Notes: a model not told the origin generated them from the sequence alone. Counted from the first letter of the stretch, positions 30,064 to 50,089 are shown. The stretch: 64,000 nt of DNA from Acidobacteriota bacterium (GCA_040755995.1 JBFMAF010000028.1:128001-192000), one strand, 5' to 3'. Made by a program: numbers and translations.

Positions 30064-33000
30064 TCACATATTCTCAATCTCGACGATGTGGACATCCCCA
30101 TTGATGCATCCCGCTGCCAGGCGTCGGCCGCCCGGATGCCACGCCACGGAGCAGGGCTTGGTCTCGCTCCGATGCTCGGCCACCTCCCGACCGTCCTCCG
30201 GATCCAGTATCTTGAGATGCCTGTCGAACCCGGCGAAGGCCAGCCATCGACCGTCCGGCGAGAAAGCCAGGTCCAGGGCCAGGACCTTCTTGAGTGTCTC
30301 CAGCCTGAGCCTGCCAGTCTCGATCTCCCAAGTCCGAAGCATGACGTCGCGCTGGTGGGTGGCCTCGACCGCGGAAACAGCGGCCACGCGCGCTCCATCG
30401 GGCGAGATGGCGGAGGCGAACACGGGCTCGCGCTTGTTGATCAGACGGAACCGCTCCGCCCCCGAGGCCACATCCCAGATTCGAAGAGTGCCGTCATAGG
30501 AACCGGAGACAAGGCTGCGGCCGTCCGGCGCGTAGCGCAAAGTAGTGATCCAGCTCTGGTGCCCTCGCAATTCGCGCGCCTCCGCGCCCTGCTCGATCGC
30601 ACGAATCCGGACGATCCCGTCGTCGGAGCCCGATGCGACCCAAGCCCCGTCAGGCGAAATGGCGCAGGCGCGGACGGGACAGGTCACGTCCTGCCAAGTC
30701 CACTCTTCTTGGTACTTCCGCAGGTCCCATACGCGGAGCGCACCGTCTTCGCTGGCTGAAACGAGCCGTTTGCCGTCGGGAGTGATCGCCGCGCCGTAGA
30801 CTTTCTTCGAATCGCCACCTCGAATCAATCCCTCTTCGCCGGCGGTTGCCAGCCGCCCGCCTTCGTGTGTCGCGGCACCGTCTTCGACCGTGCCCCGATC
30901 GGCCGCCGGGAGCGTGGCCAGAAGCTTCTCGGTCAACGTATCCCAAATTCTGATTGTCCCGTCCCAGGATGCGGTGACCAATCGGGTTCCGCCGGCCAAG
31001 AACTGGACCCCACACGCGTGCCCTTTGTGAGCTCCCAGCAGGGGGGACGAACGAACAGGTGCGGTGGTGTGCGCGGCCCGAACCGCAGCCGCGATGTCCC
31101 AGAGGCAGACCGTCATGTCTGTCGAGGCCGAGACCGCACGACGGCCGTCGGGGTGAGCAGCACATGCGCTGACCCAGAAGGAGTGTCCCCTGAGAGTCGC
31201 GAGCTCCTCACCGCTCCCAGAGTCCCAAACCTTGAGCCGTGCATCCCACGACCCGGCCGAGAGGATCCATCTCTCATCATTGAGAAAGACGCAGGCATTG
31301 ACGCCGCCGGTGTGACCTGTAGCGATCCTTAGCGCATCGCCCGAATCGAGGTTCCAGACTCGCAGCGTCTCATCGGCTGCCGCCGTGAGAAGCCGGCGGC
31401 CGTCGCGGCTGAACGTGCATGCCTTCACCTCACCCTCGTGACCGGTGAGCCGCGCCAGTTCGTGGCCGCTCCCAGCCTGGAGGATGACGACTTGGTGGAG
31501 TCGGCCGCCGCAAGCGATCCGCCGGCCGTCAGGAGAGAACGCGCAGGCGTAGAGGCCCATGTCGCGAGGACTGACATCGCAGATGATCTCACTGGTCGCC
31601 GAATCCCAAATAACCAGGCGCCCTTCCTCGCCGGCCGACGCGATGCGATGGCCATCGGGTGATACCGCGCATGCGTTCACTTGCCGAGCATGACTCCAAA
31701 GGGTGCGGCCGGCGGGGCCGGTGTCCAGATCCCAGATCCGCAGCGTCGAATCGTTGGACGCCGTGACGAGCCGCCGCCCATCTGGGAAGAATGCGCAGGC
31801 GGTGATTCCGCCTGTGTGCTGCCTGTGTTCGTGGAGAAGCGCGCCAGTCTCGGCATCCCACAGAAGCAGATGTCCGCTGTCGGTCCCGGCTGCGATGATC
31901 CGGCCGTCAGGGGATAGTGCACACGAGAGGAAGCCCATGGAGCCCAGAAACCGCATGACCAGGGCGCTGTGGCCGGCCTGGGGCTTGTTCAGCCAGCGAA
32001 CCCAAGGGCGGCGTTCACGTCCACAGCGGGTTCTCTCGCGAGCGGCCACGGCCAGTGGCGAGTCGTCGGGCTCATTGGCGGCCATCGAGAAGAGCAGATT
32101 CGGACGGATGGCGAGAATGTGGCTTCTTGATTGTATGAACCGGGCGAACGCCGCCAACCGGGCGCGCGCCGACTCGGGCCAATCGGGCCGTGCCAAGGCT
32201 GCGTTGAAATCGGCTACGAGGGCGAAGGCGAGCCCCGCCGCGCATTTCGCTTCGAGGAACTCGAGGTCGCCGAGGAGGGAGACTGCCTCATCTCTCAGGT
32301 CCGCACTCAAGAGGTGGGCCAGAAGGTGGCTCAGGGCGTAGGGATCGCACCGGCCGTGGCCGAAATCGGCGAGTAGCCTCTCCCCGATTCGGCGGTCGCC
32401 GGCAGCGCGGTCGACGCGGTAGCGGCGGCTTCGGCCGGCCACTCCGGAGAGCCAGTCAGCGATCGATTTGTGGAACGGCCGATAGCGCCCGTCGCGCTCG
32501 GGGAAGAAGGCAGCCAATTGTTCCAAGTCGGACGCCACGGCGAAAGGCGAGCGGTCCAGGAAACGGGCAACTTGTTCGGCCGAGAGCGGTTCGCGTGCTG
32601 CGGTCAGAACTTCGAGGAGGGGACGGATCGCGTCATAGCCTCTTCCCTCAGGGAAGGCCCGGGCGAAGAATCCCTGGTAGATCCCCACCAGTCCTTCGGG
32701 GAATGCGGACACGGCAGAAGGGTCGATCTGCCCCGACTCGACGGCGGCAACGGCCTGGGTGACGTAGAGGAAATTGCCCGAGCCACCCGTGGCGATTCGC
32801 GTGGCCAGCGCTGCGGCGTCGGCACCGGCCCCGCGAAGGCGTTCCGCCAGAGCCGGCTCGGCGAGACGCCGGCTGAGGTATACGCGGATGTCCTCGAGAT
32901 TCTCGGTGCGGGCAGCATCTATCTCGTGAGGCCGGAATCGGCTGAACAGGTCGAGGATCTGCGGCTCCTTGCGGGTGCTCAGCACCAACCGCAGCCAGGT

Positions 33001-33939
33001 GGGCAGGTCTTCCAATCGCTCGGCCAGCAGCCTGGCGATGTGGCGTGAGCCGTACGCCATGCCTTCATCCAGGGCGTCCACAGCGAGAATAAGCGTCTCA
33101 TGCTGCAGCTCGGCCCTCAGTGGATCGAGAACGACTCGTCGCAGCAACGATCCAGGATCGCCGTCTGCCAAGGCGTCCAGGTCCAGCGCCTCCAGGGCGG
33201 TCCGGTAGCCGGGCAGCTGCGTGCGCAGCTGGGCTGCGATCGAACGCACGAACCGCACGGGGTCCAGCGAGTCGGCCAGGCTTGCAGCGCACAGGTGGTA
33301 GGCGGCTACTCGCGGGTGGTGTTCCACCAACCAGGCGACGATGGCCGACTTGCCCGTGCCGGGGTCGCCTGTTATGAGGAAGACACGACTACTGCCGTTG
33401 TCGGCAAGCCAGGTGGAGAGTTCCGCAAGAAGCCAGTCGCGACCTGTGAAGCCGCGGGCCAACCGGGCCAGTTCCGCGCCGAAGTCCAGTGGCCTGAGGC
33501 GCGCAAGCGGGGCCGCAGTGACTCCTTCGATGCTCGGCGCGGACGCAGCGAGCGAATCGAGTAATCGCTGCAGGGCCCGCTCGTAGCGACCCGCGGCCGT
33601 CCAGTCCTGGAAGTCGATCCAGTCCAGGCGGTAGATCCCGAGGGGCGGGCGGCACTGGAGCACCATCACCGGGATGATGCGTCGCCCGTTATAGCGGGCG
33701 AGGCTGATCTCGTCGAGACACACGCCGTCGGGGCGCCGTACGGCGTGGGGCGAGAGAAGCGCCACGAACACGTCGCACCCCATAATGGCCCCCTCGATCT
33801 GCTCCTCCCAGGAGCGCCCCGCAGTAATCGCGCGGCTGTCAAGCCAGACGATGTGGCTGCGCCCAGCAAGGTCGGTAGCCAGCCGTGCGGCCAGCTCCTG
33901 CGCGTCCGCCCGCCCGTAGCTCATGAACACGCGCATCAT
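30064..33939 (-). CDS. TIR - NACHT/STAND ATPase - WD40 repeat protein (bacterial NLR-like)
   Basis: [10 protein letters not shown]...W.D...CLDEI; Walker A GDPGTGKS; Walker [23 protein letters not shown]; about 14-15 WD40 repeats; RBS AGGAGG. Confidence 0.92.
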
Positions 33940-34646
33940 GCCACCTCCTGCGCTCCCCCGGCCCAATCGACTTCGGGTTCCAAGATGTCCCGCTCTCAAG
34001 GGGGCCGTCTTGACGACAGTCAACTCTCACGGACGCCATTATCCCGTGCTGACCACCATCCTGCAAGGTGTGCCTAACAGTTTTGGGGGCGGTCGGCTGC
34101 CCACCATCGACAACACACGACAAAGCCCGATGCCCGGGCCGAATTCCGTGGCCGTTGGCGTTACCCGACGCCGCGTTGCGCGTGTTCCTTCGCTCGAAGA
34201 GAAGAGGTACCCCCATTTCCGTTAAGCACCATCCTGCGAGCATACACCAGAATCTGGCGGCAAGTCTGGAGCATCGGTGAGTGCGGAGTCGTTGTGCCGG
34301 CCGTCACCCGATGCCCATGATCTCGGCGATGACCCCCCGGGCGACATCCTCCAAGTGAGCGATGCCCTCCGCCACGGCCGCCGTTCCTTTCAGCGTCTTG
34401 CCTACCAGTTCAAGCCGCTGTACGTTGGCGAAGAGAAGCTTGTGGATCGGCACTGCGGTCTTTCGCCAACCCCACGCGACCTCGGTCTGGAGGAACCCCC
34501 CGAAGGCCTGCAATCGGGCTGCCAGCGTCTCGGAGCCCCAAAGGCGCATTCTGGTTGAGTAACCACGTTGAGTTATCTACGGATCGGTTGTTGAGATTAC
34601 CCAACTCTGGTAGTATGGATGCGAACTCAACGATCAAGAGGAGCAT

Positions 34647-36332: not shown

Positions 36333-36419
36333 GCGGGTGTACTGGAAGCGGTATGGTCGCAGATGACCCCGCTGCGAAAGTCCAAGCCCCGTCACGTCGC
36401 TCCGCGACTCTTTGACGTC

Positions 36420-37212: not shown

Positions 37213-37242
37213 TTCGTCACTCCTTTCACTGCAGTCCCTCGT

Positions 37243-37258
37243 TGCAACCCGCGTGCCA
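37243..37258 (-). promoter_or_regulatory. sigma54 -24/-12 promoter
   Basis: TGGCACGCGGGTTGCA on minus strand matches TGGCAC-N5-TTGCA consensus, 30 bp upstream of ATG 37212. Confidence 0.75.
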
Positions 37259-37783
37259 GGCCGGCTTGATTGCGTGAACTTGCTGAGCCGATTGATTTCG
37301 GCCTTCCGCGATGGAGTGGTCGGGTCGAGGCAGGATTAACTCAACCTCACTGGAACGCGAGATGAATCAGAACTCAACTACTCAACTGCGAGCGCAGCGA
37401 GCCCGGCGCCGGCACTCGTCCTGGCAGAGACCACGTGGAGACCGCCTGCCTGTTTCTCGATCTCGCCTGCATGTCGTCGCGGTGGAGTACGGGCCAGTCG
37501 CCTGGAACATGGACGGGCGTGAGATAGGCATGGCTCCCGGCGTATCCGAGCTCCGTTCGGAGCTGATTTCGGTGGGGCATCTAGCTCTGTTGCCGGCCGG
37601 GCGCTACTTGTCAGAAGGGAACGCGGCCAGCGCACGCTGGTAGTCCTCGATGAGCTCGTGGACTCCACCGTAGAGCTTCTTCCCCCTCCCGCCCTCGGCG
37701 ACTGTCACCCACGGCCACCACGCAGCGTGTGCGGTATCCTGAGTGGCAATCTCGGTCGACTGGGAGCTGACACTGTCCAGCCG

Positions 37784-39616: not shown

Positions 39617-39820
39617 TCATAGCCAGCCCCTCCCCTCGCAACGCGGACAGGGCATCTCCTGCCGTGACCCTTCGTACCAGATTCCTGTTCCGGCGCAACT
39701 GAAACACCTGCCGTACTCATCTGTCCCATCCTTCTCACAAGCCCGCCTCCAGCCGCCCGGAAACAGCCTGCACGTTCTCAGCCATTCCCAGACCCTTGAA
39801 GACCACCCACTTTTCTTCAT
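39617..39820 (-). CDS. Small DnaJ-type zinc-finger protein
   Basis: CFSCAGTG...CPRCEGRG (two CxxCxGxG); starts 6 nt after the stop of the upstream RyR-ATPase gene. Confidence 0.55.
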   Translation of the reverse strand: MKKSGWSSRVWEWLRTCRLFPGGWRRACEKDGTDEYGRCFSCAGTGIWYEGSRQEMPCPRCEGRGWL

Positions 39821-39826
39821 CGATGC

Positions 39827-42478
39827 CTACCTCTTCACCCGTTCCACCGCATACCCTGTGCGCGCCAGGATGCGCGGGATACCGCGGATCATGTCGCGAT
39901 CGATTTGTTTGATAGCGTCCGAGAGCTGATCCCATTCCACGAGATACTCGTTCCGCTTCGGGTCATCCGGCGTTGGTTTGCCGAGCTTGAATCCGGCGGC
40001 CAGCTTTGCATCCATCCACAGCTGATGCTCGATCTGTGCCAGCTTCTCCAGGTCGTCCCCCGGGAACTCAAGCGGGGGTTGGTTGCTCCGCGAGGGAAGC
40101 ATCGCGTAGCCGGCCATGCTCAGCTTCAAAGGGATCGCGCGCACCGTCACTCGGTTCGATTCCTTCGCCAATTCGGGAAGCTGGTCATACGGTATCAGCA
40201 GCGGGTGGGTCTTCGCCTGCTCGCTCTTCGTTTCTCCGTAGCGCCACCCGTCTCGTACTTTCCCATCGCAGAAGACGTCGTGTGCGGCGGCAGCCAGACG
40301 CTCCAGGAGCTCCTCGGTCAGCACGATCTGCTGCACCAGCGAGAGAAACTCCAGCCCGTTGACGTGCAGGTTGAGCTGGTCCTCGGGAGGCAGGCACGAG
40401 CGTTCGTAGCACGCCTTGCCGCTGAGCTGGCTCATCATGACGATCGACTCCATCGATCGTGCGCCGTGGCGGTACCGGCTCACTTGGAGATACGCACGCA
40501 GAACACCGGCGTCGATGCGGAGCAGTTCCAGCCCGCTTTTCTTCTCGACGAGCTGAGGCGACTGGCGCGAGAGCATCGATCGGAGCAGGATCGCTCTCCG
40601 GATGATGTGGTGCGGATCCGAACTGGCGTCCCCGCCGACTGGATTCGGGCCCATCACGGTCACGTGCCCTTTGAGCCGGCTCACGAAGTCCGGTCCTTTA
40701 GCTGCCCGGAACTGCTCCTCGGTCAACCCGTGGCCGAAGCTCTCCATGCGCTCGCAGGTGCCGCCCGCGAAGACGAATATCGCGGGCCCTATCGGGTGCA
40801 CCACCTGCCCTTCCTGGAAGACGCCGTCCTGCATGGGGGCGAGGAAATGGCGCAGCCAGCCCAGAGGCTGCCCCTGCAGCGCCGTGTCGAACTCGTCCCA
40901 AAACACCAGCGGCATGCTGCCTGAGAGCCCCGCGTCCCGCACCTGATGCAGCGCCTGATGGAGCTCGTCCACATCTTCGATCTGCGACAGGTTGAACTCC
41001 AGCCTCTTGATAACACCGGGGAGCAATGACCGCGCCACCTCACCAATTCCGAACGACTTCCCGGAACCGGGCGATCCGAACACGGCGATCGAGATCGGGC
41101 GCTTCTGGCGGCTCTGGCTGCAGTACTCGCCCACCAGCGCACGGATGCTTCTGAAGCTCTCGATCTCGTGGCGGTCGACCGTAAGCAGATTGCCGAAGCG
41201 CCCGTGCGGTACGTCTAGAAGCGCTCTCTCGACACCCTCTAACACAACGCGTTGTGCCACCTGGTCTAGCGAATCGGGGTGACGGTCCTCGAGGATCGTC
41301 CAGAAGCTCGTGTCGCTGGTGTGAGGCGCCGTCGGCTGCCGCTGCGTGATGAAGCGCACGGGGTCCTGGACTTCGACCACCGCGTAATTGGGCGCGTCCG
41401 CGCCGATCTCTCTGGCGATCTGCTCGATCGGGAACTCCAACTGCGTCCCTTCGTGTCCCTCGGCACGGCTCACGTAGCCATCGAGATGGAGCCTGGTGAC
41501 GGCGGCCAGACCGGCCTGGATGCCCCGCTGTATCTGCCGATTCGCCGGATCGATCATCAGTTCTCGAGCGATGGCGGCGGTCAGACACGTGTCGTAGCCG
41601 ACCATGCCGCCAAAATGGTCGTGCGCCCACATTCCCTCTATGACCTCGGGGTCGAAGAACAGGAAGTACTTTGCGGCCGGGGCGCCAACTTCTGCAGCGG
41701 TTCGCGACAGAAGGAAAGCTCCCGCCCCGTCGAACGAAACGACGACGTGAGCGCACGAGGAGAGCGCATTGACCCTGGGGTTGTGCATTATCTCCCAGGC
41801 CAGGTCCTGCGCCGTCCGCTCCCACGAGAGCTCGCGGCTGATCTGTACTTCCGTGCGCCTCAGGTCATCGACGTGCATGATCGCGATGAGTCGCCCCTGG
41901 AACGTATTGCGGAGGTGTTCCCACAGCGCGCCCGCCGCGATAGGGCGTGACATCCTGAGGACCGCCCAGCAGCGCGGCGAGGGCCGCTTCACCGCCTCGG
42001 GCCAGACGTCCGGTCGGCCTCGGAATCCCAGGTCGGCGTCGTCGATGACGATCAGGTCGACGGTCTCGGGGTCGGCCTCGCAACGCGAGAGCGCCGCGCC
42101 GTCACTGCCCGGATCGGATCCGATGAACTCGGCGACCCGCCAGGCGGATCGGCGTGGGCCCGATTTCGAGCTGTGGTCGTAGGGCGACCAAATGGCGAAG
42201 GTCTGATGGTAGCGGCGGTCGTCGGGTGAGATGCTCCCCCGAGGCTCCTCGATTCTCTTGACGAGCCAGGTCCCCTTCGCCTCCTCCGGCAGTTGTCCGC
42301 CGATCGCCTCGATGAGATCGCCCAGGCGCGCGGCCCCGCCTCGCTGCCAGGAGGCGCGGGCAAGAGAACTCGACTGAGTTCTGGCCGCGTGGGGATCGGG
42401 GGTTCGCGCGATGCTCCAGTCGACCGTGATATGGCCGGTGACCAGTGCGACTTTCTTGGAACTGCCGGTGCCTGTCAT
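39827..42478 (-). CDS. PfkB-like N-terminal domain + AAA+ ATPase + two RyR repeats
   Basis: LVTGHITVDW...GGAA; Walker A GSPGSGKS; Walker B VFWDEFD; HGARSMESI; RyR repeats LA...H..F...GWRYG...KTHPLLIPYDQL...K..NR and LA..EH..W...LVEWDQL...K..DR. Confidence 0.85.
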   Translation of the reverse strand: MTGTGSSKKVALVTGHITVDWSIARTPDPHAARTQSSSLARASWQRGGAARLGDLIEAIGGQLPEEAKGTWLVKRIEEPRGSISPDDRRYHQTFAIWSPYDHSSKSGPRRSAWRVAEFIGSDPGSDGAALSRCEADPETVDLIVIDDADLGFRGRPDVWPEAVKRPSPRCWAVLRMSRPIAAGALWEHLRNTFQGRLIAIMHVDDLRRTEVQISRELSWERTAQDLAWEIMHNPRVNALSSCAHVVVSFDGAGAFLLSRTAAEVGAPAAKYFLFFDPEVIEGMWAHDHFGGMVGYDTCLTAAIARELMIDPANRQIQRGIQAGLAAVTRLHLDGYVSRAEGHEGTQLEFPIEQIAREIGADAPNYAVVEVQDPVRFITQRQPTAPHTSDTSFWTILEDRHPDSLDQVAQRVVLEGVERALLDVPHGRFGNLLTVDRHEIESFRSIRALVGEYCSQSRQKRPISIAVFGSPGSGKSFGIGEVARSLLPGVIKRLEFNLSQIEDVDELHQALHQVRDAGLSGSMPLVFWDEFDTALQGQPLGWLRHFLAPMQDGVFQEGQVVHPIGPAIFVFAGGTCERMESFGHGLTEEQFRAAKGPDFVSRLKGHVTVMGPNPVGGDASSDPHHIIRRAILLRSMLSRQSPQLVEKKSGLELLRIDAGVLRAYLQVSRYRHGARSMESIVMMSQLSGKACYERSCLPPEDQLNLHVNGLEFLSLVQQIVLTEELLERLAAAAHDVFCDGKVRDGWRYGETKSEQAKTHPLLIPYDQLPELAKESNRVTVRAIPLKLSMAGYAMLPSRSNQPPLEFPGDDLEKLAQIEHQLWMDAKLAAGFKLGKPTPDDPKRNEYLVEWDQLSDAIKQIDRDMIRGIPRILARTGYAVERVKR

Positions 42479-42687
42479 GGTTTGACTCCGTCGAGTTGGG
42501 TCTCTGTTACGAAGAGGCTGTGTCCGATGCCGATGTCCAAACTCCAGAATCACATTCTACTATGTTTCACATGACTAGCTGCCGACTCTGCTAGGGGCAG
42601 TAGACACGGCGCCGGGGAATCGAGTATGAACATGCCATCGAGTTGCTCGGCCGAGCGCCTCCAGCACTCGGAGAACGGGAGGGATAC

Positions 42688-43635
42688 ATGGACGCGTTTC
42701 AATCAGAACATGACATCCTGCGCTATTCGCGGCAGGTCGTGCTGAAGGCGATGGACAATGTGCGGGCGAGGATGCGCGGCTCCGATCGGCTGACACTCAG
42801 CGGCACCGTCGAGAGCCCGCAGGTCGCGAAGGCAGAGCTGAACCTGACGAAGGGCATCGATGCCGCGACAGAGGAGCTGATCGTCGGGACCCTGCAGAAG
42901 AAGCTCGCCAGGATACCCGCGATCAAGACGTTCTCGGTCTTCTCGGAGGAATGCGGGATTTTGAGGTTTCCTCGCGGGGCGAAGGAGGCCGACGCGGACC
43001 TGGTGGTCTTTGTCGATCCGATCGACGGCACCGAGTTCATCGAATCACTTCAGGGCGGCTGGTGCCTCGTCGCGGTGTATGACCGCAGGGCCAATGAGAC
43101 CATAGTGGCCGTGGCCGGCGACATCTTCCTTGACCGCCTCTACTGGGCATCCAAGAGCAGCTACGCCGAGGCGATCGACTTCGCGACACACTCATGGTTC
43201 AAGCTTGACGGCGGGCCGAATCCGAAGACGGAACTTGCCGGAGCGCGAGTGAACTTCCTGACGACGAAGGTTGGCCGTTACACATCGGTGGCGAAACAGA
43301 AGCGTTTACTCGACGCCATCAAGCGAAAGGACGGCAGGATCAACCTCTCATGGGGCTCGAACATGATCGTGCAGGTTGCCGCGGGATACGCGGATGCCGC
43401 CGTCGAGTTCACCAAGGGATTCGCGACCTACGACCTCATCCCCGGGCTCTTCATCGGCCTCCGCGCGGGGCTCACGATTCTTGACCTGAAGGGAAACCGA
43501 ATCGGGACGACGCTGGATATCGACGAGATCTTCGCGACCTGGCGGAGAGACCCGAAGCGCCCGAAGCGGATGTCGTTCATCGCGGCCAAGCACGAGAAGC
43601 TGGCGAGGGAGATCCTGGAGCTCCTGGAGTTATAG
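42688..43635 (+). CDS. Inositol monophosphatase/FIG-superfamily metal-dependent phosphatase
   Basis: D...E..I, SEE, DPIDGT, YDL..G metal-binding motifs. Confidence 0.85.
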   Translation: MDAFQSEHDILRYSRQVVLKAMDNVRARMRGSDRLTLSGTVESPQVAKAELNLTKGIDAATEELIVGTLQKKLARIPAIKTFSVFSEECGILRFPRGAKEADADLVVFVDPIDGTEFIESLQGGWCLVAVYDRRANETIVAVAGDIFLDRLYWASKSSYAEAIDFATHSWFKLDGGPNPKTELAGARVNFLTTKVGRYTSVAKQKRLLDAIKRKDGRINLSWGSNMIVQVAAGYADAAVEFTKGFATYDLIPGLFIGLRAGLTILDLKGNRIGTTLDIDEIFATWRRDPKRPKRMSFIAAKHEKLAREILELLEL

Positions 43636-44136
43636 CTCGAATCGGCTCAGGCACCATGCGCAACGCAGGGTCACGGCGTCGTCCCATCTGCCATTCGAGA
43701 TATCGTAAGCGACCGATGCCGTGACGGTCGGCGGGCGCAGCTACAGAGCCCGCGCGATTTCATTCAGGCAGTACCCATCGGGCATCCGCGCCGAATGCGG
43801 TGTCATCAGGAGGACTACCCTGCCCGTCCGTGGGATCTCGGAGGCCCAGTCAAGGCCTTGCTCGATATGGCTCTCCCAGTCCGCGCCGGGCTTGAGCTTC
43901 TCCACGTCGAACCAGACGGCATGCCCATGCGCGACAAGGTCTTCTTTCAATCTCTGAGCAACCGCAGCATGTTCGTCATGCCCGTAGCTCAGAAAGATGC
44001 GGCGGGAGGTACGCAGCTTCCCGGCCGAGAACTCATCGCAGCAATCCACGCACACCTGAACTTGGCGCTTGGGGCTGAAGTGGAGATTCGGCGACCCGCA
44101 CGCGGGGCAGACCGTATCGGCTGGCAGACCCGACAT
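43630..44136 (-). pseudogene. Truncated zinc-ribbon + TIR protein
   Basis: CPACG...CVDC; TIR RIFLSYGHD...VWFD...PDGYCLNEIARAL then TAG at 43741-43743; in-frame tail ...GRWDDAVTLRCAWC. Confidence 0.75.
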
Positions 44137-44223
44137 TTCGCGGGGATTCTAAGGAAGCGCGTGGGACATGACAATGTGCGGGAGCCGCGCAGCCGCGCAT
44201 CTGACAGGAGGCGCAGAAATCGC

Positions 44224-44252
44224 TTGACTGGCGGGCTTCACCTGCCTATGTT
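44224..44252 (+). promoter_or_regulatory. Putative sigma70 promoter of Nudix-channel-synthetase operon
   Basis: TTGACT-17-TATGTT. Confidence 0.5.
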
Positions 44253-44426
44253 GGGATACCATGTCTCTGGAATGGCGCAGCGAACACTGCTCTGTCCGCT
44301 GCCGCGTCAGTCTGGAGTCCTGGATTCTGAAAGAGAGGTCCCGAGCACTCGGGCCCGATTCCCGAGAAGATCTGCACTGGAGCACAATACGGACGCGCAG
44401 TCGTCCCGAAAGCGGAGGTGGATCGA

Positions 44427-44837
44427 ATGGACAAGCCGTTAGGGGTCGCGGGGAAATCGATCATCAGGAAACAGGGCAAGATCCTTCTGCTCCAACGCTC
44501 GCTGAGCTCCACGCATGACCCCGGCTTGTGGGAGCTGCCGGGCGGGAAGATCGAATATGGCGAGGTCCTGACGGAGGCGCTCGAACGAGAGGTCACAGAA
44601 GAAACCGGGCTCACGATCGAGGTACGCAAACCCATCACGACGTGGCACTTCTACAAGCTGCCGTTCTGGGTCACCGGGGTCACGTTCCTGTGCGACCACG
44701 TCGGCGGCGATGTCACGCTGAGCTCGGAGCACTACACGTACGCCTGGATCGATCCCCTGGAGTACCGTAACTACTCGCTGAGCACCTCCATGAAGGAACA
44801 GATCGAGGCGTATCTCGAGAGCCAACGACTGTCATAA
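44427..44837 (+). CDS. Nudix hydrolase
   Basis: Complete Nudix box GKIEYGEVLTEALEREVTEETGL; WELPGG; SEH..YAW; RBS GGAGGT. Confidence 0.93.
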   Translation: MDKPLGVAGKSIIRKQGKILLLQRSLSSTHDPGLWELPGGKIEYGEVLTEALEREVTEETGLTIEVRKPITTWHFYKLPFWVTGVTFLCDHVGGDVTLSSEHYTYAWIDPLEYRNYSLSTSMKEQIEAYLESQRLS

Positions 44838-44852
44838 CGCGATGCAAGTGCG

Positions 44853-46685
44853 ATGACAGAGGCGACCACTAAGCCATCCCGCCGGGCACCGGCGCACCCG
44901 AGGAGATCGCTCTGGCGGAATCGCGTCAGGTCATTCTGGCTCGACATCCGATGGTTTGTCCTGGGCGCCCTGACTGTCTTCACCTTGGGTCTCGGCTGCG
45001 TGGGATTCCATGGGCACTTCGAACTGACGGGTGAATACAGGTCGCCTGGCGATCTCCTCTACCTCTCGCTGCAGCTGTTCACGCTCGAGTCCGGCTCGAT
45101 TGTGCCTCCGATCCCATGGCAGCTCCAGATCGCGCGCCTGCTCGCTCCGGCAATCGCCGTCTACACCGCGGTGCAGGCGCTGCTCGCCCTCTTCCACGAG
45201 CAGCTGCAGCTACTCCGCGTGCGCTTCGTGAAGAACCACGTCGTCATCTGCGGGCTCGGCCAGCGCGGCCTGCACCTCGCGCAGGGATTCCGCGACCGCG
45301 GATACCGCGTGGTCGTCGTGGAACATGACGAGGATGATCCGCTGATCGGATCGTGCCGCGAACGCGGTGCGATCGTTCTGATGGGTGACGCCAGAGATCC
45401 GGCCATCTTGCGAAAGGCGAGAGTCCACCGCGCCGCATACCTGGTCGCGGTCTGCAGCGACGATGGGATCAACACGGAGGTGGCTATCCAGGCTGAGAAG
45501 CTGGTCCGGAGTCGCCGGGGGTCAGTGCTGGCGACTTTCATCCACATAGAGGACGTCGAGCTCTGCAGCCTGCTCCGTGAGCGAGGGCTGGCAAGCGAGG
45601 AGATCTCATCGTTCCGCCTCGAGTTCTTCAACATCCTCGAGACCGGCGCCCGGCTGATGCTCGACCACTTCCCGGCTCTGGAGAGGCCGCCGGGCGAAGA
45701 GGTCCCGGACTCGCCCGCAGCACCTCCGCACATCGTTGTGATCGGTCTGGGCAAGATGGGACGAAGCCTGGTGGTTGAGGCGGGGAGACGCTGGTGGCTG
45801 AGGCATTCATCCGACGGCAGCAGACTCCGCATCACCGCACTCGACAATGCGGCCGACACGAAGAAGGCGGTCCTGTGCATCCGCTACCCGCAGCTGGACA
45901 GGGCCTGCGACATCACCCCTTTCCAGATCGATCTGAGCTCCATCGAATTCGAACGAGGCGACTTCATCTTTGCCCCCGGCAGCCGGTGTGATGTTAGCAT
46001 CGTATATCTCTGCTTTGACGACGACGTGCACGCGCTCGCGGCTGCACTGTCGCTCCACCAGAGAACCCGCGAATACCGAATCCCGATCATAGTCCGAATG
46101 AGCCACGACGGGGGACTGGCTTCGCTGATGCAGCCGCTGGCGGGCGGGCCGGGCACATTCGAAGACCTCCACGCATTCGGCATGCTGGAACGCGCGTGCA
46201 CGCCGGAGCTGCTGCTGAGCGGCACGCACGAGCAGCTCGCGCAGGCGTTCCACGAACAATACGTGGTAGGGCGAGAAAAGGCAGGCGACACGCCGCAGAC
46301 CAACAAGGCCATGGTGCCATGGCATGCGCTGCCGGAGGGCCTCAAGGAGTCCAACCGGCGCCAGGCGGACGACGTGGCCGTTAAGCTCAAGGCGGTCGGG
46401 TGTCGAATCATGCCTCTGGCCGACTGGGCGCAGCCGCCGCTGGAGCTCACACGGGAGGAAGTGGAGCTTCTGGCGAAGATGGAACATGCGCGCTGGTGCG
46501 ATGAGCGCCGCACGGCCGGCTGGCGCTATGCACCGCCGCCGAAAAACGAGGCGAAGAAGACTAGCCCGTATCTCGCAGCGTGGGGGGAGCTTGATGAGAA
46601 GACGAAGGACATCGATCGCGACGCGATGCGCTCCATCCCTGCGACCCTGGCACGGGCGGGGTTCCAGACCTATCGACAGAGATAG
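44853..46685 (+). CDS. Membrane protein: 2TM/pore-like segment + two TrkA-N (RCK) domains + two RyR repeats
   Basis: TM-LYLSLQLFTLESG-TM; HVVICGLGQRG and HIVVIGLGKMG Rossmann motifs; RyR repeats PW..LPE.LKESNR.QAD and LAKMEH.RW...GWRY...KTSPYL..W..L..K..DR. Confidence 0.88.
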   Translation: MTEATTKPSRRAPAHPRRSLWRNRVRSFWLDIRWFVLGALTVFTLGLGCVGFHGHFELTGEYRSPGDLLYLSLQLFTLESGSIVPPIPWQLQIARLLAPAIAVYTAVQALLALFHEQLQLLRVRFVKNHVVICGLGQRGLHLAQGFRDRGYRVVVVEHDEDDPLIGSCRERGAIVLMGDARDPAILRKARVHRAAYLVAVCSDDGINTEVAIQAEKLVRSRRGSVLATFIHIEDVELCSLLRERGLASEEISSFRLEFFNILETGARLMLDHFPALERPPGEEVPDSPAAPPHIVVIGLGKMGRSLVVEAGRRWWLRHSSDGSRLRITALDNAADTKKAVLCIRYPQLDRACDITPFQIDLSSIEFERGDFIFAPGSRCDVSIVYLCFDDDVHALAAALSLHQRTREYRIPIIVRMSHDGGLASLMQPLAGGPGTFEDLHAFGMLERACTPELLLSGTHEQLAQAFHEQYVVGREKAGDTPQTNKAMVPWHALPEGLKESNRRQADDVAVKLKAVGCRIMPLADWAQPPLELTREEVELLAKMEHARWCDERRTAGWRYAPPPKNEAKKTSPYLAAWGELDEKTKDIDRDAMRSIPATLARAGFQTYRQR

Positions 46686-46704
46686 GAAGCCAGAGGAGGC
46701 CGTC

Positions 46705-49212
46705 ATGCATGAGCGGAACACCGACTCGAAGTCAGCTGACCGTGAATGGGCCCGGAAACAGATCGCCACATTCCGATCGCGGCTGGGGGACTACGAGGGG
46801 TTTGCCAGGGTACTGAAGGCGGTGCTGGAGCAGGTCGCCCGAAAGCTCGCTCCGCAGGCCATCGTCCAGACGCGCCCCAAGTCCATCGCCAGTTTCGCCG
46901 ACAAGATCTACCGCAAGAGGGCCGGGCACAAGGACCCCGTCAACCAGTTCACGGACCTGTGCGGCGGCAGGGTCATCGTGCACACGCCGGAAGAGGTGAA
47001 GGCAATCTCCAAGTTCATCGAGGATCACTTCATTATCGACTGGGACAACAGCGTCGACGTCAGCCAGCGCCACAAGCCCACCGAGTTCGGTTACCGCTCC
47101 GTTCACTACATCGTCAGCTTCAAGCGGCGCGCCTTTCCCAATGCGTGGGCGGATGTGAAAGTCCCCAGGTTTCTTCTCGATATGAAGAACCCCCGCGCCG
47201 AGATCCAGGTCAGAACCCTCCTCGAACATGCGTGGGCGGACATCTCTCATGACCTCGTGTACAAGTGCGGCTTCAAGATACCCTCGGGCCTCGAGCGCGA
47301 GCTTGCGGCAGTGGCCGCCCTTCTCGAGAACGCGGACAGCTCTTTCTCGCGTATCGTGACCGCGTTGCGCACGTATGCATCCTCTTATGGCGTCTACATG
47401 ACGCCGGGTCGGATGCGCCAGCAGATCGAACTTCTGGAGTTCGTGTTGGGGCACGACCGCGAGAACGTGCAGCTGGCTTCGAAGCTCGGGCAGCTGGCCA
47501 TCTCGCTTGGCGATTGGGAACTGGCCGTGCGAGTGTTGGGGAAGCACACCCGGAGCGGCCACACGGTCGTTCTGAGAGACCTGGGCAGGTCCCTGTGCAA
47601 GCTCCACGCGCAGAATCCCCGTGGTCGTGATTACCGGCAGGGCCAGAGGTTCTTGGAGAAAGCCGCTTCCGGCGCGGAACCAGACCGGGATGCGATTGCC
47701 ATGCTGGCTGGGACCTGGAGGCGCGTCGACACCGAGAAGGCGCGGCAGCTGTACCTGCGCGCCTACGAGATGGATCCGACGGATTGCTATGCGCTCGGGA
47801 ACCATCTGGACGCCGAAATCGAGGCCCGGAAGGACGTGTCGATCGTCCAGCTGATGACTCCCGTCATCCTCGCGTCGATCAATCGCTGCCGGCAGCAGGC
47901 AAGGGTGGGCATCAACCTCCCCTATGCGTTTTACGCCATGGGGAAGTTCTACCTGTACATGGAAAGACCCTACGAGAGCCTTGTCGCATATGCCAAGGCC
48001 CTCCAGCTCAGCAGCGCGCCGTTCATGATCGAAAGCCCGCTTCGATCGATTGAGGGATTGAAGCCGATCCGGGATACGCTCGCCGGGTACAACTGGGTAC
48101 ACACCCTGCTGCTAGCGGGACTCGCCGCGAAGTTCCCGACCGACGCACGGCGCAAGGCGCTCAAGGAACTCGCTTCGACGAAGCCGATCGAACCGCCGAT
48201 AGTCATCGTTGCGGGCGGCTGTGATCCCGCGTTCGAGCAGGAGATGTCGAGCTATCGAGACCTGGTGATCGGTGCTTTCCGAGATTACACGGGAACGGTC
48301 ATCTCCGGCGGCACGATCGAAGGGATCAGTGGATTCGTGGGAGACCTGGCAGAGAAGTATCGAGGGTCGATTCGCACACTATCCTACCTCCCCAAGATGA
48401 TCCCCTCAGACGCCACGTTGGACCGGAGGTATGATGAAATCCGCAGGACGGAGGGCTCGGGGTTCAGTCCGTTGGAGCCGCTTCAGAACTGGGTGGACAT
48501 CATCAGCGCCGGAATCTACCCCGCGACGGTGAAGGTCCTGGGGATCAACGGGGGCAGCATCTCGGCGGTGGAATACCGGCTGGCCCTGGCTCTTGGCGCC
48601 AAGGTCGGCATCGTCGAAGACAGCGGCCGCGAGGCCGCTAAGTTGTGGCCCGACGAGGACTGGGGCTCGGCCGAAGGGTTGGCGAAACTTCCCAAAGATC
48701 CCATGACGCTCCGTGCCTTCATCGGCACGGGCGAGCCACGCTGGAAGGAAGATGAGCGGAAGGCCGTGGCGCAGGCGATCCACCAGGAATACAGGATGAA
48801 TCGCATGAAACGGGAGATTGAGGCTGATACCGCAATGGCACCCTGGGGAGCCTTGCGAGAGGAGCTGGTGCGATCGAACCTTCAACAAGCTGACCACGTC
48901 TTCGAGAAACTCGGAGAGATCGGGTGCACGCTCGTGAAGATATCGGGAAGGAAGATCAAGCTGCTCAGGTTCACAGGTGACGAGGTGGAGAAGATGGCCG
49001 AGATGGAGCACGGAAGGTGGAACGCGGAGCGACTGCTGGATGGATGGAGTTGGGCGCCGGACCGCGATCCTCTGAAGAAGACCAGCCCGTACCTGGTGGC
49101 ATGGGCGGACCTGCCGGAGGATGTGAGGGAGTGGGATCGGGCCACGGTGCGCAAGATTCCAGAGTTCCTGGCGAACATCGGGTACGAGGTCCGGAGGGGT
49201 CGGAGGCGATAG
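46705..49212 (+). CDS. RelA/SpoT-type synthetase + TPR + SLOG-like domain + two RyR repeats
   Basis: RPKSIASF..K, DLCGGRVI, GYRSVHYIV, EIQVRTLLEHAWADISH.L.YK; TPR-like helices; ISGGT..GI and GG.IS..EY.LA...G..V...SGR.A; C-terminal RyR repeats; RBS GAGGAGG. Confidence 0.88.
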   Translation: MHERNTDSKSADREWARKQIATFRSRLGDYEGFARVLKAVLEQVARKLAPQAIVQTRPKSIASFADKIYRKRAGHKDPVNQFTDLCGGRVIVHTPEEVKAISKFIEDHFIIDWDNSVDVSQRHKPTEFGYRSVHYIVSFKRRAFPNAWADVKVPRFLLDMKNPRAEIQVRTLLEHAWADISHDLVYKCGFKIPSGLERELAAVAALLENADSSFSRIVTALRTYASSYGVYMTPGRMRQQIELLEFVLGHDRENVQLASKLGQLAISLGDWELAVRVLGKHTRSGHTVVLRDLGRSLCKLHAQNPRGRDYRQGQRFLEKAASGAEPDRDAIAMLAGTWRRVDTEKARQLYLRAYEMDPTDCYALGNHLDAEIEARKDVSIVQLMTPVILASINRCRQQARVGINLPYAFYAMGKFYLYMERPYESLVAYAKALQLSSAPFMIESPLRSIEGLKPIRDTLAGYNWVHTLLLAGLAAKFPTDARRKALKELASTKPIEPPIVIVAGGCDPAFEQEMSSYRDLVIGAFRDYTGTVISGGTIEGISGFVGDLAEKYRGSIRTLSYLPKMIPSDATLDRRYDEIRRTEGSGFSPLEPLQNWVDIISAGIYPATVKVLGINGGSISAVEYRLALALGAKVGIVEDSGREAAKLWPDEDWGSAEGLAKLPKDPMTLRAFIGTGEPRWKEDERKAVAQAIHQEYRMNRMKREIEADTAMAPWGALREELVRSNLQQADHVFEKLGEIGCTLVKISGRKIKLLRFTGDEVEKMAEMEHGRWNAERLLDGWSWAPDRDPLKKTSPYLVAWADLPEDVREWDRATVRKIPEFLANIGYEVRRGRRR

Positions 49213-49435: not shown

Positions 49436-49552
49436 CGGCCTTCTCTCGGCGTCTCTTTGAATAATACAATCCGCTTCTCTGCGGCGTCAAGGAGAGCTTG
49501 GGATCCAGGGATCCAGGCGATCCCTTGACAGCGCCCGGACCCGTGCCTATAG

Positions 49553-49882
49553 TTGCCTTATGAAATCCAGGGCGCGCCCGAGCCGGTGAGGGCCCGCCTC
49601 CTGGAGATACCGGAAAGGCACCAAGTGATGTTGGCGGATACACCCGATGCGGCTGAGTTGGCGGAGGCCTACCTTAAGCACGGGGTTGTGGGGCCAGGCA
49701 GCCGCTCGGACGCGCTGCACGTCGCGTTGGCTACGCTCGGACGTGTGGATGTGCTGGCCAGCTGGAACTTCAAGCACATCGTGAACCTTGGCCGGATAAG
49801 GCTGTTCAATGCTGTGAACCTGGAACAGGGATTCGGATTGATCGAGATCCGTACCCCACAGGAGGTGGTGTCTGATGACTAG
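49553..49882 (+). pseudogene. PIN-domain protein lacking N-terminus
   Basis: EI..AP...LAEAYL...DALHVALAT...D.L.SWNFKHIVN...IEIRTP.EV; first PIN motif (DTSV-type) absent. Confidence 0.75.
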
Positions 49883-50089
49883 GACGTTCGATGCGGTTGC
49901 GTGGATGAGACGCCGGCGCATAGAGATGATGAAGAGGACGCTCTGCTCACCTGGGATGACAAACGAGATCGGACACGGCGAGTGCTCCAACAAGATCCGC
50001 TCTGGCAGCGGCTTCGTGACCGCATGAGCCCCATACAAGCATCATACGATCGCCCGTCGAGTAGAGAAGGCGTAGGTGGCGCGGCGTGA
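49875..50089 (+). pseudogene. Frameshifted small partner gene of PIN protein
   Basis: MTRTFDAVAWMRRRRIE continues in another frame as DEEDALLTWDDKRDRTRRVL..DPLWQRL; apparent 1-nt loss near 49927. Confidence 0.55.

Follow-up and report, generated by a model that had tools for sequence, protein, structure and literature searches.

TRPM2 joins SLOG-like MHR1/2 domains to a NUDT9 Nudix domain and is gated by ADP-ribose (ADPR). In the bacterial anti-phage Thoeris systems (types I-XI), the TIR protein ThsB produces a signal derived from ADPR, which is sensed by an effector; the text of the survey gives this effector as SLOG-SIR2 for type I, Macro-TM for type II and the ion channel ThsK for type X, its introduction naming SLOG as the 3'cADPR sensor of type I (10.64898/2025.12.03.692087). 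According to two 2026 preprints, the TIR-made 2'/3'cADPR is either bound at nanomolar affinity or cleaved by phage RyR-domain proteins, which employ His, Trp, His/Lys and Asp residues (PMC13232231, PMC13251945). DUF4062 is reported to be a TIR-like NADase producing ADPR (10.64898/2026.05.01.722283; 10.64898/2026.09.04.749371), and the N-terminal TIR/DUF4062 domains of STAND proteins are described there as self-sufficient NAD-depleting effectors, not signal makers (10.64898/2026.09.04.749371). Here we analyzed a window of 64,000 nucleotides from an Acidobacteriota bacterium that encodes an ATPase, a channel-like protein and a RelA/SpoT-type (Rel) protein, each ending in RyR repeats. Because three RyR-ended proteins recur beside NAD-cleaving TIR-type sensors, the RyR proteins are probably the hitherto undescribed receivers in a bacterial immune signaling pathway, and we lean slightly towards reading the locus as supplying the effectors of an immune or conflict signaling system that uses an NAD-derived nucleotide. 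Our literature searches found no characterized system of such composition, in agreement with the first-pass annotation, and no description of host RyR effectors.

The locus shares with Thoeris a TIR enzyme gene adjoining genes with a domain for which binding of TIR-made cADPR isomers has been shown, a SLOG domain, a membrane or channel effector and a patchy accessory distribution. It differs in that the TIR/DUF4062 domain belongs to a large NLR-like protein with STAND and WD40/TPR parts, of a kind that the survey excludes as Avs-type, and in that up to three different effectors share a tandem RyR pair as their presumed receptor. RCK channel, alarmone synthetase and PfkB-AAA+ ATPase outputs are absent from the survey's text and 'RyR' occurs zero times in it, while ThsK or any of the survey's 29 putative effectors may still contain an RyR domain (10.64898/2025.12.03.692087). 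The phage proteins RyDEP (PMC13232231) and RyR Tad (CB1 gp68; PMC13251945) share the PF02026 family and a His-x-x-Trp plus Asp pocket, their single-repeat homodimer being equivalent to the tandem pair here; however, they are small sponges or glycosidases that hide or destroy the signal, whereas RyR here is the C-terminal module of host multi-domain proteins and presumably a receptor. As in animal RyR and TRPM2, a Repeat12-type fold (Z ~14) and a TRPM-type SLOG fold (Z ~12) are predicted here, either fused to a cation-channel-like protein or encoded next to it and to a Nudix gene, but the modeled pore is a 2TM RCK-gated one (GsuK/CASTOR-like) rather than the 6TM pore of RyR/TRP, and the components are divided among several proteins. 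In architecture, the partner genes match the Avs-like and NIR/TIR STAND NADases (N-terminal TIR/DUF4062, STAND NTPase and repeat sensors); those are described as stand-alone NAD depleters in texts that leave RyR unmentioned (10.64898/2026.09.04.749371; 10.64898/2026.05.01.722283), whereas here they are coupled, in an operon-like manner, to RyR/SLOG genes. We regard the cassette as a putative Thoeris-like signaling system with host RyR effectors.

The three proteins, whose N-termini are unrelated, were noticed at first to end each in a tandem RyR pair, and Pfam and a local profile agree on this. The Pfam search gave RyR (PF02026) scores of 88.7, 53.0 and 46.7 bits for the three window proteins against a cut-off of 27.4, and the local profile aligned a full tandem pair of ~155 aa in the ATPase, channel-like and Rel proteins. 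Profile and fold matches point to RyR Repeat12, the models scoring Z 14.0 (Rel) and 14.4-14.7 (channel) against RyR3 Repeat12 and the Bt-hRyR chimera. The clustering is not due to chance: four of the five RyR matches in the 7.7-Mb genome are at the window locus and the fifth is in its paralogous remnant. Among 99 near-full tandem RyR domains taken from related loci, the first half carries a His in all 99 and an aromatic residue three positions further on in 98, while in the second half the His is kept in 98, the aromatic residue in 96 and an Arg in 87, with one further position occupied by Asp in 70 domains and by Asn in 24. H129, W132 and D171 of RyR Tad align with H, W and D in all three window second halves and K147 aligns with a Lys in the channel protein, but the equivalents of H154 (Ser/Asn) and K170 (Ile/Trp) differ. 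Only three of the six RyR Tad contact residues are strictly conserved in the window, and therefore the ligand may differ from 3'cADPR. Since solved animal Repeat12 domains contain ATP, ADP or AMP-PCP according to their PDB titles, a plain adenine-nucleotide sensor is also possible. The sequence comparisons support the RyR pair as a conserved module common to the three proteins, and its proposed role as a shared nucleotide-sensing module is consistent with the phage RyR preprints and the conserved pocket.

A recurrent cassette has the 2TM/double-RCK/RyR gene as its hub; in the window this gene occupies 44853..46685 on the plus strand and encodes a channel-like protein of 610 aa with a 2TM P-loop domain, two RCK/KTN lobes and the tandem RyR pair (Pfam TrkA_N, E 1e-17; RyR, E 4.3e-14). 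The earlier description of a 2TM channel-like double-RCK protein is borne out by the AF2 model (pLDDT 83), in which M1, the pore helix and M2 are predicted as helices 16-59, 65-77 and 89-124 and are followed by two Rossmann lobes. The model resembles TrkA (Z 21.7, rmsd 3.8 Å), the CASTOR/DMI1 rings (Z about 21-21.6; 21.6 for DMI1) and GsuK (Z 20.9 over residues 33-456, but with an rmsd of 11-12 Å). The predicted succession of M1, pore helix, M2 and two RCK lobes is shared with GsuK, MthK and CASTOR/DMI1, to which the C-terminal RyR pair is a new addition. Because the T-V-G-Y-G K+ selectivity signature is absent from the pore loop of the window protein and 17 homologues, the channel should not be filed as K+-selective. 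The loop reads L-E-S-G-S in the window and L/F/M-E/Q-S/A/Y-G in the homologues, and the L-E/Q-S-G form recalls in sequence the ADS(A)GNHA filter given for the Ca2+-selective CASTOR (PMC6697748). The channel has at least 413 homologues, and 218 stretches in species-representative genomes were confirmed by tblastn.

The Nudix, channel and Rel genes form the tight operon that the first reading saw, the ORF coordinates leaving gaps of 15 nt (44838-44852) and 19 nt (46686-46704). The leading gene (44418..44837, plus strand, probable start 44427) encodes a MutT/NudG-type Nudix hydrolase (PF00293, E 8.6e-19, 68.3 bits against a cut-off of 21.1) whose translation contains the Nudix box G-x5-E-x7-R-E-x2-E-E-x-G; NudG and MutT are its nearest NCBIfam families, with the NudG, MutT and ADPRase equivalogs all under their cut-offs, and it matches the PADLOC candidate PDC-S07 (E 6e-25). 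The Rel-SLOG-RyR gene (46705..49212, plus strand) encodes 835 aa comprising a small-alarmone-synthetase-like RelA/SpoT domain (PF04607, E 1.8e-17, 64.1 bits against a cut-off of 27), a TPR region whose matches fall under the Pfam cut-off, SLOG and the tandem RyR pair (E 4e-12), and matches PADLOC PDC-S33 (E 1e-17). The nearest solved structures of the Rel domain are RelQ/YjbM and RelP/YwaC (E 4e-8), but its 47 bits against the NCBIfam YjbM equivalog, whose cut-off is 320, show that the protein is not a YjbM orthologue. Across nine homologues, the invariant Rel columns are R57, K59, D84, G87, R89, Y130-R131-S132-H134, E166, Q168, R170, T171 and H175, some of which are presumably catalytic. For the SLOG domain, the predicted fold stands while Pfam LSDAT_prok stays sub-threshold (18.9 bits against 25.4): in the AF2 model of Rel residues 488-835, model residues 10-189 match 1rcu with Z 14.3 (rmsd 3.0 Å, 155 aligned), TRPM4/TRPM2 MHR1/2 with Z 12-12.9 and DprA with Z 11.6. 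The synthetase fold and motifs are shared with RelQ/RelP and toxSAS, but here they are fused to TPR, SLOG and RyR, and the partner is a Nudix enzyme rather than a hydrolase of SpoT type. SAH antitoxins are neighboring hydrolases that act as the antidote to toxSAS, and by analogy the hydrolase adjoining the Rel gene could be an antidote. Nudix clusters with Rel-SLOG-RyR in eight of the ten Rel loci, with a weaker tblastn match in a ninth (L041).

The ATPase-RyR gene (39827..42478, minus strand) encodes 883 aa with an N-domain of predicted PfkB fold, an AAA+ type P-loop ATPase and the tandem RyR pair (Pfam RyR, E 3.1e-25, in two stretches). The PfkB-like label holds as a predicted fold only: the N-domain has no Pfam match, and residues 1-440 of the Atlas model align to PfkB clusters with TM 0.53-0.58 by query and 0.69-0.73 by target. 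The AAA+ label is backed by Walker A and Walker B motifs, invariant across 14 homologues, while its Pfam matches are weak (E 0.008); a GG motif is also invariant in the homologues, and no catalytic Asp motif was identified. The gene starts at 42478 and is, as first described, divergent from a plus-strand IMPase-family phosphatase-like gene (42643..43635, start 42643 or 42688; PF00459, E 3e-14, 53.6 bits against 27). The phosphatase had been counted as a system component, but its homologue is found neither in any of 80 related loci (tblastn, E 1e-5) nor in the locus (L093) of the same-family genome G001, and the homology to a paralogous locus on contig C35 ends exactly at its stop codon. The gene is probably not part of the system.

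For the linkage survey, 78 related channel loci from many phyla were compared. A full-length ATPase-RyR homologue adjoins the channel gene in 21 loci, and Nudix plus Rel-SLOG-RyR accompany it in eight. A TIR gene is present in 25 loci, a DUF4062 gene in 12 and either of these, the most frequent partners, in 32, the share being 21/36 where each flank spans at least 3 kb and 16/25 where it spans at least 6 kb. In 16 of the 25 TIR-bearing loci the TIR gene lies within 500 nt of the channel gene, and the proteins are NLR-sized, not small ThsB. Per 10 kb, there are 3.28 TIR/DUF4062 genes in the nearest 500 nt around the channel gene and 0.48, 0.40 and 0.12 in successively more distant intervals, a ~27-fold excess of the nearest interval over the one at 5-10 kb; 45 of 47 such genes share the channel gene's strand. 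This proximity and orientation suggest operons, not loose islands. Chloroflexota account for most TIR-adjacent loci, which makes these linkage counts phylogenetically non-independent. The presumed catalytic Glu column is Glu in 34 of 35 aligned TIRs, and the neighbors in related loci are NLR-like (TIR, DUF4062, STAND, WD40 and TY-Chap1). Neither an ATPase, Rel, TIR or DUF4062 gene nor a further RyR gene is present in 30/78 loci (9/36 with at least 3 kb and 6/25 with at least 6 kb of flank). Locus L077 and G001 each contain all three RyR genes together with Nudix; in G001, ATPase-RyR, DUF4062-STAND, Nudix, Rel-RyR, TIR and channel-RyR genes lie within 20 kb but are ordered differently. The expectation that the RyR genes co-occur elsewhere is thereby confirmed, with these two full sets and common pairwise modules. 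The spread is patchy, the channel gene being found in two of 30 relatives at 41-46% identity.

Between the two units of the window lies the TIR remnant noted before (43636..44136, minus strand), derived from a Zn-ribbon-TIR-STAND-WD40 gene and identified by TIR_2 and by blastn to L086. It consists of the first 131 codons (43741-44136; TIR_2 E 2.5e-13, a partial match to profile positions 1-76 of 122) and ~119 nt of the 3' part (43636-43754), separated by a ~3.7-kb internal deletion; positions 6673-7366 of L086 correspond to 43748-44450 (78%) and 2838-2954 to 43636-43754 (86%). An intact 1479-aa TIR-STAND-WD40 paralogue bearing NPHP3_N is on contig C35 (L086). The C35 locus is a reciprocally decayed paralogue of the window locus: its TIR-NLR gene is intact and its effectors are deleted, whereas in the window the effectors are intact and the adjacent TIR-NLR gene is deleted. 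The genome contains nine TIR_2 matches in 7.7 Mb, yet both RyR loci adjoin TIR-STAND-WD40 genes. Another intact NLR-like gene in the window (30064..34023, minus strand) encodes 1319 aa with an N-terminal TIR_2 (E 8.4e-23, residues 32-155), a P-loop STAND NTPase and WD40 propellers, and is 31% identical over its full length to the C35 protein, with the P-loop aligned; it is a candidate signal maker, located 5.8 kb from the ATPase-RyR gene with unrelated genes between. The genes flanking the window system are housekeeping ones (methylmalonyl-CoA mutase, PilS/PilR-like regulators, pilus and pantothenate genes), and the locus is not a classic defense island.

A different account, which we consider rather doubtful, denies any signaling link: the TIR/DUF4062-STAND proteins would be autonomous Avs-like NAD depleters, and the RyR proteins separate stress or defense genes that share accessory islands and sense ATP/ADP status, for example energy collapse after NAD loss. 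The NAD depletion reported for STAND N-terminal TIR/NIR domains (10.64898/2026.09.04.749371) fits this, as do the animal Repeat12 structures titled with ATP, ADP or AMP-PCP, the binding of NAD and ADP by RCK/KTN domains themselves (GsuK and KTN structure titles) and the 30 loci devoid of any tallied partner gene. However, the steep rise in TIR/DUF4062 density towards the channel gene, the nearly uniform strand, the survival of the association through the gene-order rearrangement between the window and G001, and the repeated co-occurrence of SLOG domains all speak for a link. A plain housekeeping role, with a nucleotide-regulated cation channel for ion homeostasis, Rel/Nudix as a stringent-response accessory and RyR as a common regulatory add-on, would suit the flanking genes and the ordinary regulatory parts that an RCK ring and a SAS domain are. 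It is the least probable of the readings, given the rarity of the channel gene among relatives and its low identity within the same family, the NLR-like neighbors, the PADLOC defense-candidate matches of Nudix and Rel, and the decay of one locus copy, which is typical of accessory genes.

The first-pass annotation placed the signal source in the Rel domain, which would make a (p)ppGpp-/(p)ppApp-like messenger to be read by the RyR pairs of the channel and ATPase and erased by Nudix (and IMPase), with TIR incidental. The tight operon, the recurrence of its trio in eight of the 78 loci and in G001, the invariant synthetase motifs, and RyR pockets that accept adenine nucleotides (by PDB titles) favor it. 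But Rel is absent from 68 of the 78 channel loci and is found in just one (L077) of the 21 with ATPase-RyR, which rules it out as the general source of the ligand. Rel moreover carries RyR and SLOG itself, as expected of a regulated effector, IMPase is missing from all 80 related loci, and TIR/DUF4062 genes are adjacent far more often, leaving this scheme unlikely. Of the first reading as a whole, the shared nucleotide-sensing RyR module and the co-occurrence survive, while Rel as general signal maker and IMPase as component do not.

Returning to the NAD-derived signal that we prefer, the analysis establishes the domain make-up, the conserved cassette and pocket, the linkage to TIR/DUF4062 genes and the reciprocal decay of both loci, and from there we infer the ligand, the defense role and every biochemical step as follows. 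NLR-like sensors (N-terminal TIR, or DUF4062/NIR in relatives, with STAND NTPase and WD40/TPR) would detect an invader and, once activated, cleave or cyclize NAD+ to ADPR or a cyclic/modified ADPR, which the C-terminal tandem RyR (Repeat12-like) pocket of the three effectors would bind. The GsuK/CASTOR-like 2TM double-RCK channel would then open, with ion flux and depolarization expected; the RelQ-like pyrophosphokinase would make an alarmone, with growth arrest expected, and the co-transcribed MutT/NudG-type Nudix would reset the alarmone or the signal; and the PfkB-fold/AAA+ ATPase would be switched on. In this genome, a diffusible signal could come in trans from the intact C35 paralogue and from the TIR-NLR encoded at 30064-34023. 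It counts against the pathway that, in the window, the neighboring TIR gene is broken and an intact one is found no closer than 5.8 kb. A complete bacterial pathway, in which an NLR-like NADase makes ADPR/cADPR for an RyR-Repeat12 receptor gating a CASTOR-like, perhaps Ca2+-passing, channel, with the alarmone synthetase and the ATPase in parallel, is a tentative proposal that we would not yet back. If true, it would be a prokaryotic counterpart, and possibly ancestor, of animal cADPR/ryanodine-receptor and ADPR/TRPM2 signaling and of plant TNL-to-Ca2+-channel immunity, and the reciprocal decay would be a natural experiment showing sensor-effector communication in trans via a diffusible molecule. 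The SLOG domain may be an additional binder of the NADase product. In 14 of the 78 loci, the ATPase and channel genes are separated by a small SLOG-like gene, and eight of 13 such proteins match SLOG families weakly.

Three otherwise unrelated proteins of the window each end in RyR repeats (Pfam PF02026), as the first-pass annotation had proposed, and all three matches lie above the Pfam gathering score: the ATPase-RyR protein (39827-42478, minus strand; RyR E 3.1e-25, in two stretches), the channel-like RyR protein (44853-46685, plus strand; RyR E 4.3e-14, TrkA_N 1e-17) and the Rel-RyR protein (46705-49212, plus strand; RyR E 4e-12, RelA_SpoT 1.8e-17). With a local profile, the full tandem RyR pair of ~155 residues aligned in all three, and PDB sequence searches led to the ryanodine-receptor Repeat12 domain and to a Bacteroides 'putative ryanodine receptor'. 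Only five RyR matches occur in the 7.7 Mb genome, four of them within the window locus. The families named earlier for the Nudix gene (E 8.6e-19) and the IMPase-family gene (E 3e-14) hold, as do the short intergenic gaps, 15 nt from Nudix to channel and 19 nt from channel to Rel. PADLOC found no named system among the six proteins of the locus, and its candidate models marked the Nudix protein as PDC-S07 (6e-25) and the Rel domain as PDC-S33 (1e-17). The flanks of the 30-49.5 kb stretch carry housekeeping genes (methylmalonyl-CoA mutase, PilS/PilR-like regulators, pilus and pantothenate genes) and no mobile-element genes were seen in them; a classic defence-island or mobile-element setting was thus not seen. 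A gene for a Uma2-family putative restriction endonuclease (27451-28116; PF05685, E 2.7e-33) neighbours the methylmalonyl-CoA mutase gene a short way beyond the locus, and directly downstream of the Rel gene is a 163-codon ORF without a Pfam match (49547-50038, minus strand), which may not be a gene.

To describe the channel-like protein, we built an AlphaFold2 model from 17 homologues (mean pLDDT 83), in which the chain runs from a long M1 helix through a short pore helix, a loop and M2 into two Rossmann lobes and, last, the RyR pair. Structure alignment with VIA matched the model to TrkA (Z 21.7), to the gating rings of DMI1/CASTOR (Z 21-21.6), to the whole GsuK channel over model residues 33-456 (Z 20.9, at an rmsd of 11-12 Å) and to RyR Repeat12 (Z 14.4-14.7). 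The pore loop (45078-45116) lacks the K+ signature TVGYG and reads L-E-S-G and, across the family, L/F/M-E/Q-S/A/Y-G. This acidic-Ser-Gly core is similar to the ADS(A)GNHA filter that the available text of one report (PMC6697748) gives for CASTOR, a Ca2+-selective plant channel, and CASTOR also ranks, through its gating ring, with the best structural matches. Because TVGYG is absent and the loop is reminiscent of the CASTOR filter, we describe the modeled protein as P-loop channel-like and leave its ion selectivity unassigned. A four-copy complex prediction of the pore region (residues 22-128) scored 0.27 against a mark of 0.42, which counts neither for nor against a tetramer. The family is large and well conserved, with at least 413 homologues, and both TrkA_N and RyR are found in all but one of the 120 listed.

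For the N-terminus of the Rel protein, RelQ/YjbM and RelP/YwaC, both small alarmone synthetases, are the nearest matches (E about 4e-8), and the synthetase motifs are invariant across nine Rel homologues from different phyla. A model of residues 488-835 (pLDDT 80) shows a SLOG fold, with Z 14.3 to 1rcu, about 12 to the MHR1/2 of TRPM2/TRPM4 and 11.6 to DprA, followed by a Repeat12 fold with Z 14.0 to that of human RyR3; by sequence, the SLOG region gave only a sub-threshold LSDAT_prok match. In the ATPase protein, Walker A and B are invariant among 14 homologues and the AAA matches are weak. Its N-terminal residues 1-440 are similar to PfkB/ribokinase clusters in the Atlas, a protein cluster and structure resource (TM 0.53-0.58, with the Atlas's own model); a feature search there with the N-domain gave no usable match, and only the structure rows were informative. 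The product of 39827-42478 is a putative PfkB-fold/AAA+ ATPase.

To determine which genes accompany the channel gene, we searched contigs of one genome per species, where 218 of 291 candidate stretches encode a channel relative, and kept the best 80 of these 218 loci, from many phyla. ORFs were called in the 80 loci and clustered, and local profiles were built; two loci were dropped because their channel ORF fell outside the main cluster, leaving 78 to be counted. The full-length ATPase-RyR gene is present in 21 of the 78 loci, Rel-TPR-SLOG-RyR in 10, Nudix in 10 and the latter two together in 8; of the two Rel loci that the Nudix cluster does not include, one (L041) gave a weaker tblastn match to Nudix. 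All three RyR genes and Nudix, which the first-pass annotation had placed in one system, recur together in locus L077 and in the same-family genome G001, where the ATPase-RyR, DUF4062-STAND, Nudix, Rel-RyR, TIR and channel genes lie within 20 kb in an order different from that of the window. For the IMPase-family phosphatase, proposed as a further component, neither the 80 loci nor the G001 locus contain a homologue, and we therefore excluded it from the system. A ~195-aa protein is encoded directly upstream of the channel gene in 14/78 loci (L020:9273-9899 and 13 others) and is frequently flanked on its other side by the ATPase-RyR gene; the window lacks it and has Nudix at this position. The motifs GVTGHR, LAEGAD and GGTGEIV of this protein, seen in its alignment, and weak Pfam matches to SLOG families (DprA, YpsA, YAcAr) in 8 of 13 members hint that it may be SLOG-like; its profile gave only chance-level matches against PDB sequences.

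A recurrent partner that the first-pass annotation overlooked is a TIR or DUF4062 gene. Pfam searches with representatives of the neighbours gave TIR_2-WD40, small TIR_2, DUF4062-NACHT/nSTAND1-TPR, ClpB-like AAA+ and TY-Chap1/YbjN chaperone-like proteins. By local profiles, TIR is present in 25, DUF4062 in 12 and either in 32 of all 78 loci; the corresponding numbers are 15, 11 and 21 of the 36 loci flanked by 3 kb or more on each side, and 11, 10 and 16 of the 25 loci flanked by 6 kb or more, and these adjacency counts are not independent because many TIR-adjacent loci come from Chloroflexota. Loci without an ATPase, Rel, TIR, DUF4062 or further RyR gene, which count against the link, number 30/78, 9/36 and 6/25 in the same three sets. 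As an internal control, we expressed the TIR/DUF4062 genes as a density by distance from the channel gene and obtained, per 10 kb of the flanking sequence available, 3.28 at 0-0.5 kb, 0.48 at 0.5-2 kb, 0.40 at 2-5 kb and 0.12 at 5-10 kb. The strand is that of the channel gene for 45 of the 47 TIR/DUF4062 genes. Glutamate occupies the column that we take to be the TIR catalytic position in 34 of 35 aligned TIR domains. Aligning our local DUF4062 and TIR alignments with hhalign gave a probability of 12.6% and covered the first strand only, and for regarding DUF4062 as TIR-like we rely on two 2026 preprints, the available text of which describes it as a TIR-like NADase yielding ADP-ribose (10.64898/2026.05.01.722283; 10.64898/2026.09.04.749371). 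With this activity, both kinds of partner gene would make ADPR-type products. In locus L049, a 1760-aa protein encoded directly upstream of the channel gene (4698-9980) contains a TIR-like region (residues 97-201), a DUF4062-like region (residues 275-373) and WD40 propellers.

The genome itself contains nine TIR_2 matches. One belongs to an intact TIR-STAND-WD40 gene (30064-34023, minus strand; 1319 aa), from which the ATPase gene is 5.8 kb away; between these two genes is encoded a sigma-54 activator-type AAA+ protein of 561 aa with no receiver domain detected (34647-36332), followed by small ORFs without family matches (36363-37643). The TIR remnant, a 131-codon ORF (43741-44136, minus strand), matches TIR_2 at E 2.5e-13 and covers only positions 1-76 of the 122 in the profile. 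On C35, another contig of the same genome, an intact 1479-aa Zn-ribbon-TIR-NPHP3_N-WD40 gene, which holds another of the nine TIR_2 matches, stands beside the fifth RyR match. This locus (L086 = G000:C35:92000-104000, 2622-8163) and the window locus are paralogous, with nucleotide identities of 78-86% and with homology that stops exactly at the IMPase stop codon. The two loci have decayed in opposite ways. In the C35 locus, Nudix is internally deleted, the channel gene is reduced to its start and the last RyR half, and of Rel roughly the first 50 codons are left. The window has all three effector genes complete, and its TIR-NLR gene has lost ~3.7 kb of its interior, so that the 131-codon remnant and 119 nt of the 3' part survive. 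The opposite decay implies that the ancestral unit was a TIR-NLR gene divergent from Nudix-channel-Rel. The surviving halves could presumably cooperate only if the link between them were diffusible, and with this pair of loci action in trans could readily be tested by genetics.

Phage proteins with the same domain point to the kind of ligand to be expected. According to the available text of one report, RyDEP, a mycobacteriophage PF02026 protein, binds and cleaves 2'cADPR as well as 3'cADPR, with contacts at H75, W78, H100 and D117, and six of eight tested phage homologues bind these Thoeris signals, some with nanomolar affinity (PMC13232231); that of another gives RyR Tad (gp68 of Pectobacterium phage CB1) an affinity of 43 nM for 3'cADPR, with binding of 2'cADPR and cADPR as well, and contacts H129/W132, K147/H154 and K170/D171 (PMC13251945). 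Neither structure was among the matches of our PDB sequence searches, and residues were mapped by aligning gp68, obtained by accession, to the six RyR halves of the window. H129, W132 and D171 of gp68 correspond to His, Trp and Asp in all three second halves; K147 is Lys in the channel protein, H154 is Ser or Asn and K170 is Ile or Trp. Among 99 near-complete tandem domains, the His is present in all 99 first and 98 second halves and an aromatic residue three positions past it in 98 and 96, respectively, while the Asp/Asn-Arg motif has Asn in 87 first halves and Asp in 70 or Asn in 24 second halves. The near-invariant His and aromatic residue indicate a host pocket under strong constraint that is not identical to the phage pocket, and from these sequences the host ligand may be a different NAD-derived nucleotide. 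A tblastn search of the RyR pair against a phage collection returned a single weak match, a Sinorhizobium phage RyR protein.

What has to be explained, then, is the observed architecture, recurrence and linkage of these genes and the conservation of the pocket. The reading toward which we lean, if only slightly, is that an NLR-like NADase makes a signal that is read by the RyR and SLOG domains of the channel, Rel and ATPase proteins; its biochemistry and its role in defence are what we infer. A triggered NLR-like TIR or DUF4062 sensor would turn NAD+ into ADPR itself or into a cyclic or modified form of it, the product would be bound by the RyR pair and by a fused or separate SLOG domain, binding would open the RCK channel and activate the RelQ-like synthetase and the ATPase, and the Nudix enzyme would reset the system.

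Published views of TIR- and NIR-STAND proteins, together with ATP/ADP-bound Repeat12 structures, would also fit autonomous, Avs-like NAD depleters that merely share islands with ATP/ADP-sensing RyR proteins, but the 27-fold effect of proximity to the channel gene and the strand bias make such an arrangement rather unlikely. That the messenger is instead made by the Rel domain, itself a synthetase by its motifs, is a doubtful proposition, weakened by the lack of Rel in 68/78 channel loci and 20/21 ATPase loci. Housekeeping control of ions and of the stringent response is very improbable given the patchy distribution (two of 30 relatives) and the NLR-like company of these genes.

Signalling by an NLR-like NADase would share the logic of Thoeris, whereas here TIR or DUF4062 lies within STAND-WD40/TPR proteins, the receptor is the RyR pair and as many as three effectors share a single type of receptor. 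We found no description of an RCK channel, an alarmone synthetase or a PfkB-AAA+ ATPase as a TIR-signal effector. A systematic Thoeris survey lists, in its available text, 29 putative types, one of which (type X) has an ion channel as its effector, and leaves out Avs-type TIRs; RyR does not appear in that text (10.64898/2025.12.03.692087), and overlap with an untested class of the survey is possible. Kaur et al. 2020 (eLife) mention neither RyR nor DUF4062, RyR is likewise unmentioned in the available text of the two DUF4062 preprints, and full-text literature searches combining RyR with prokaryotes, Thoeris/TIR and anti-phage/ADPR gave only the two phage preprints as relevant. If our reading is true, the RyR proteins would be the family of host receptors with which phage RyR sponges and glycosidases compete or which they imitate, TIR-type immunity would gain three effector types (RCK-gated channel, alarmone synthetase and PfkB-AAA+ ATPase), and NLR-like TIR/DUF4062 NADases, hitherto viewed as simple NAD depleters, would be tied to second-messenger signalling. 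The old question of whether the ryanodine-receptor Repeat12 is an ADPR or cADPR sensor could be tested with small soluble bacterial domains.

Other RyR architectures were seen beside or within the channel gene, namely a DUF6036 nucleotidyltransferase-RyR fusion (L074:9518-10498), a stand-alone 161-aa RyR pair (L030:1882-2367) and a channel protein of 764 aa that carries two tandem RyR pairs (L059:901-3195). ClpB-like double-AAA+ proteins adjoin the channel gene in nine loci (L027:7295-9475, L019:7627-9978 and seven others), and TY-Chap1/YbjN chaperone-like proteins are present in four (L081:5965-6396 and three others).
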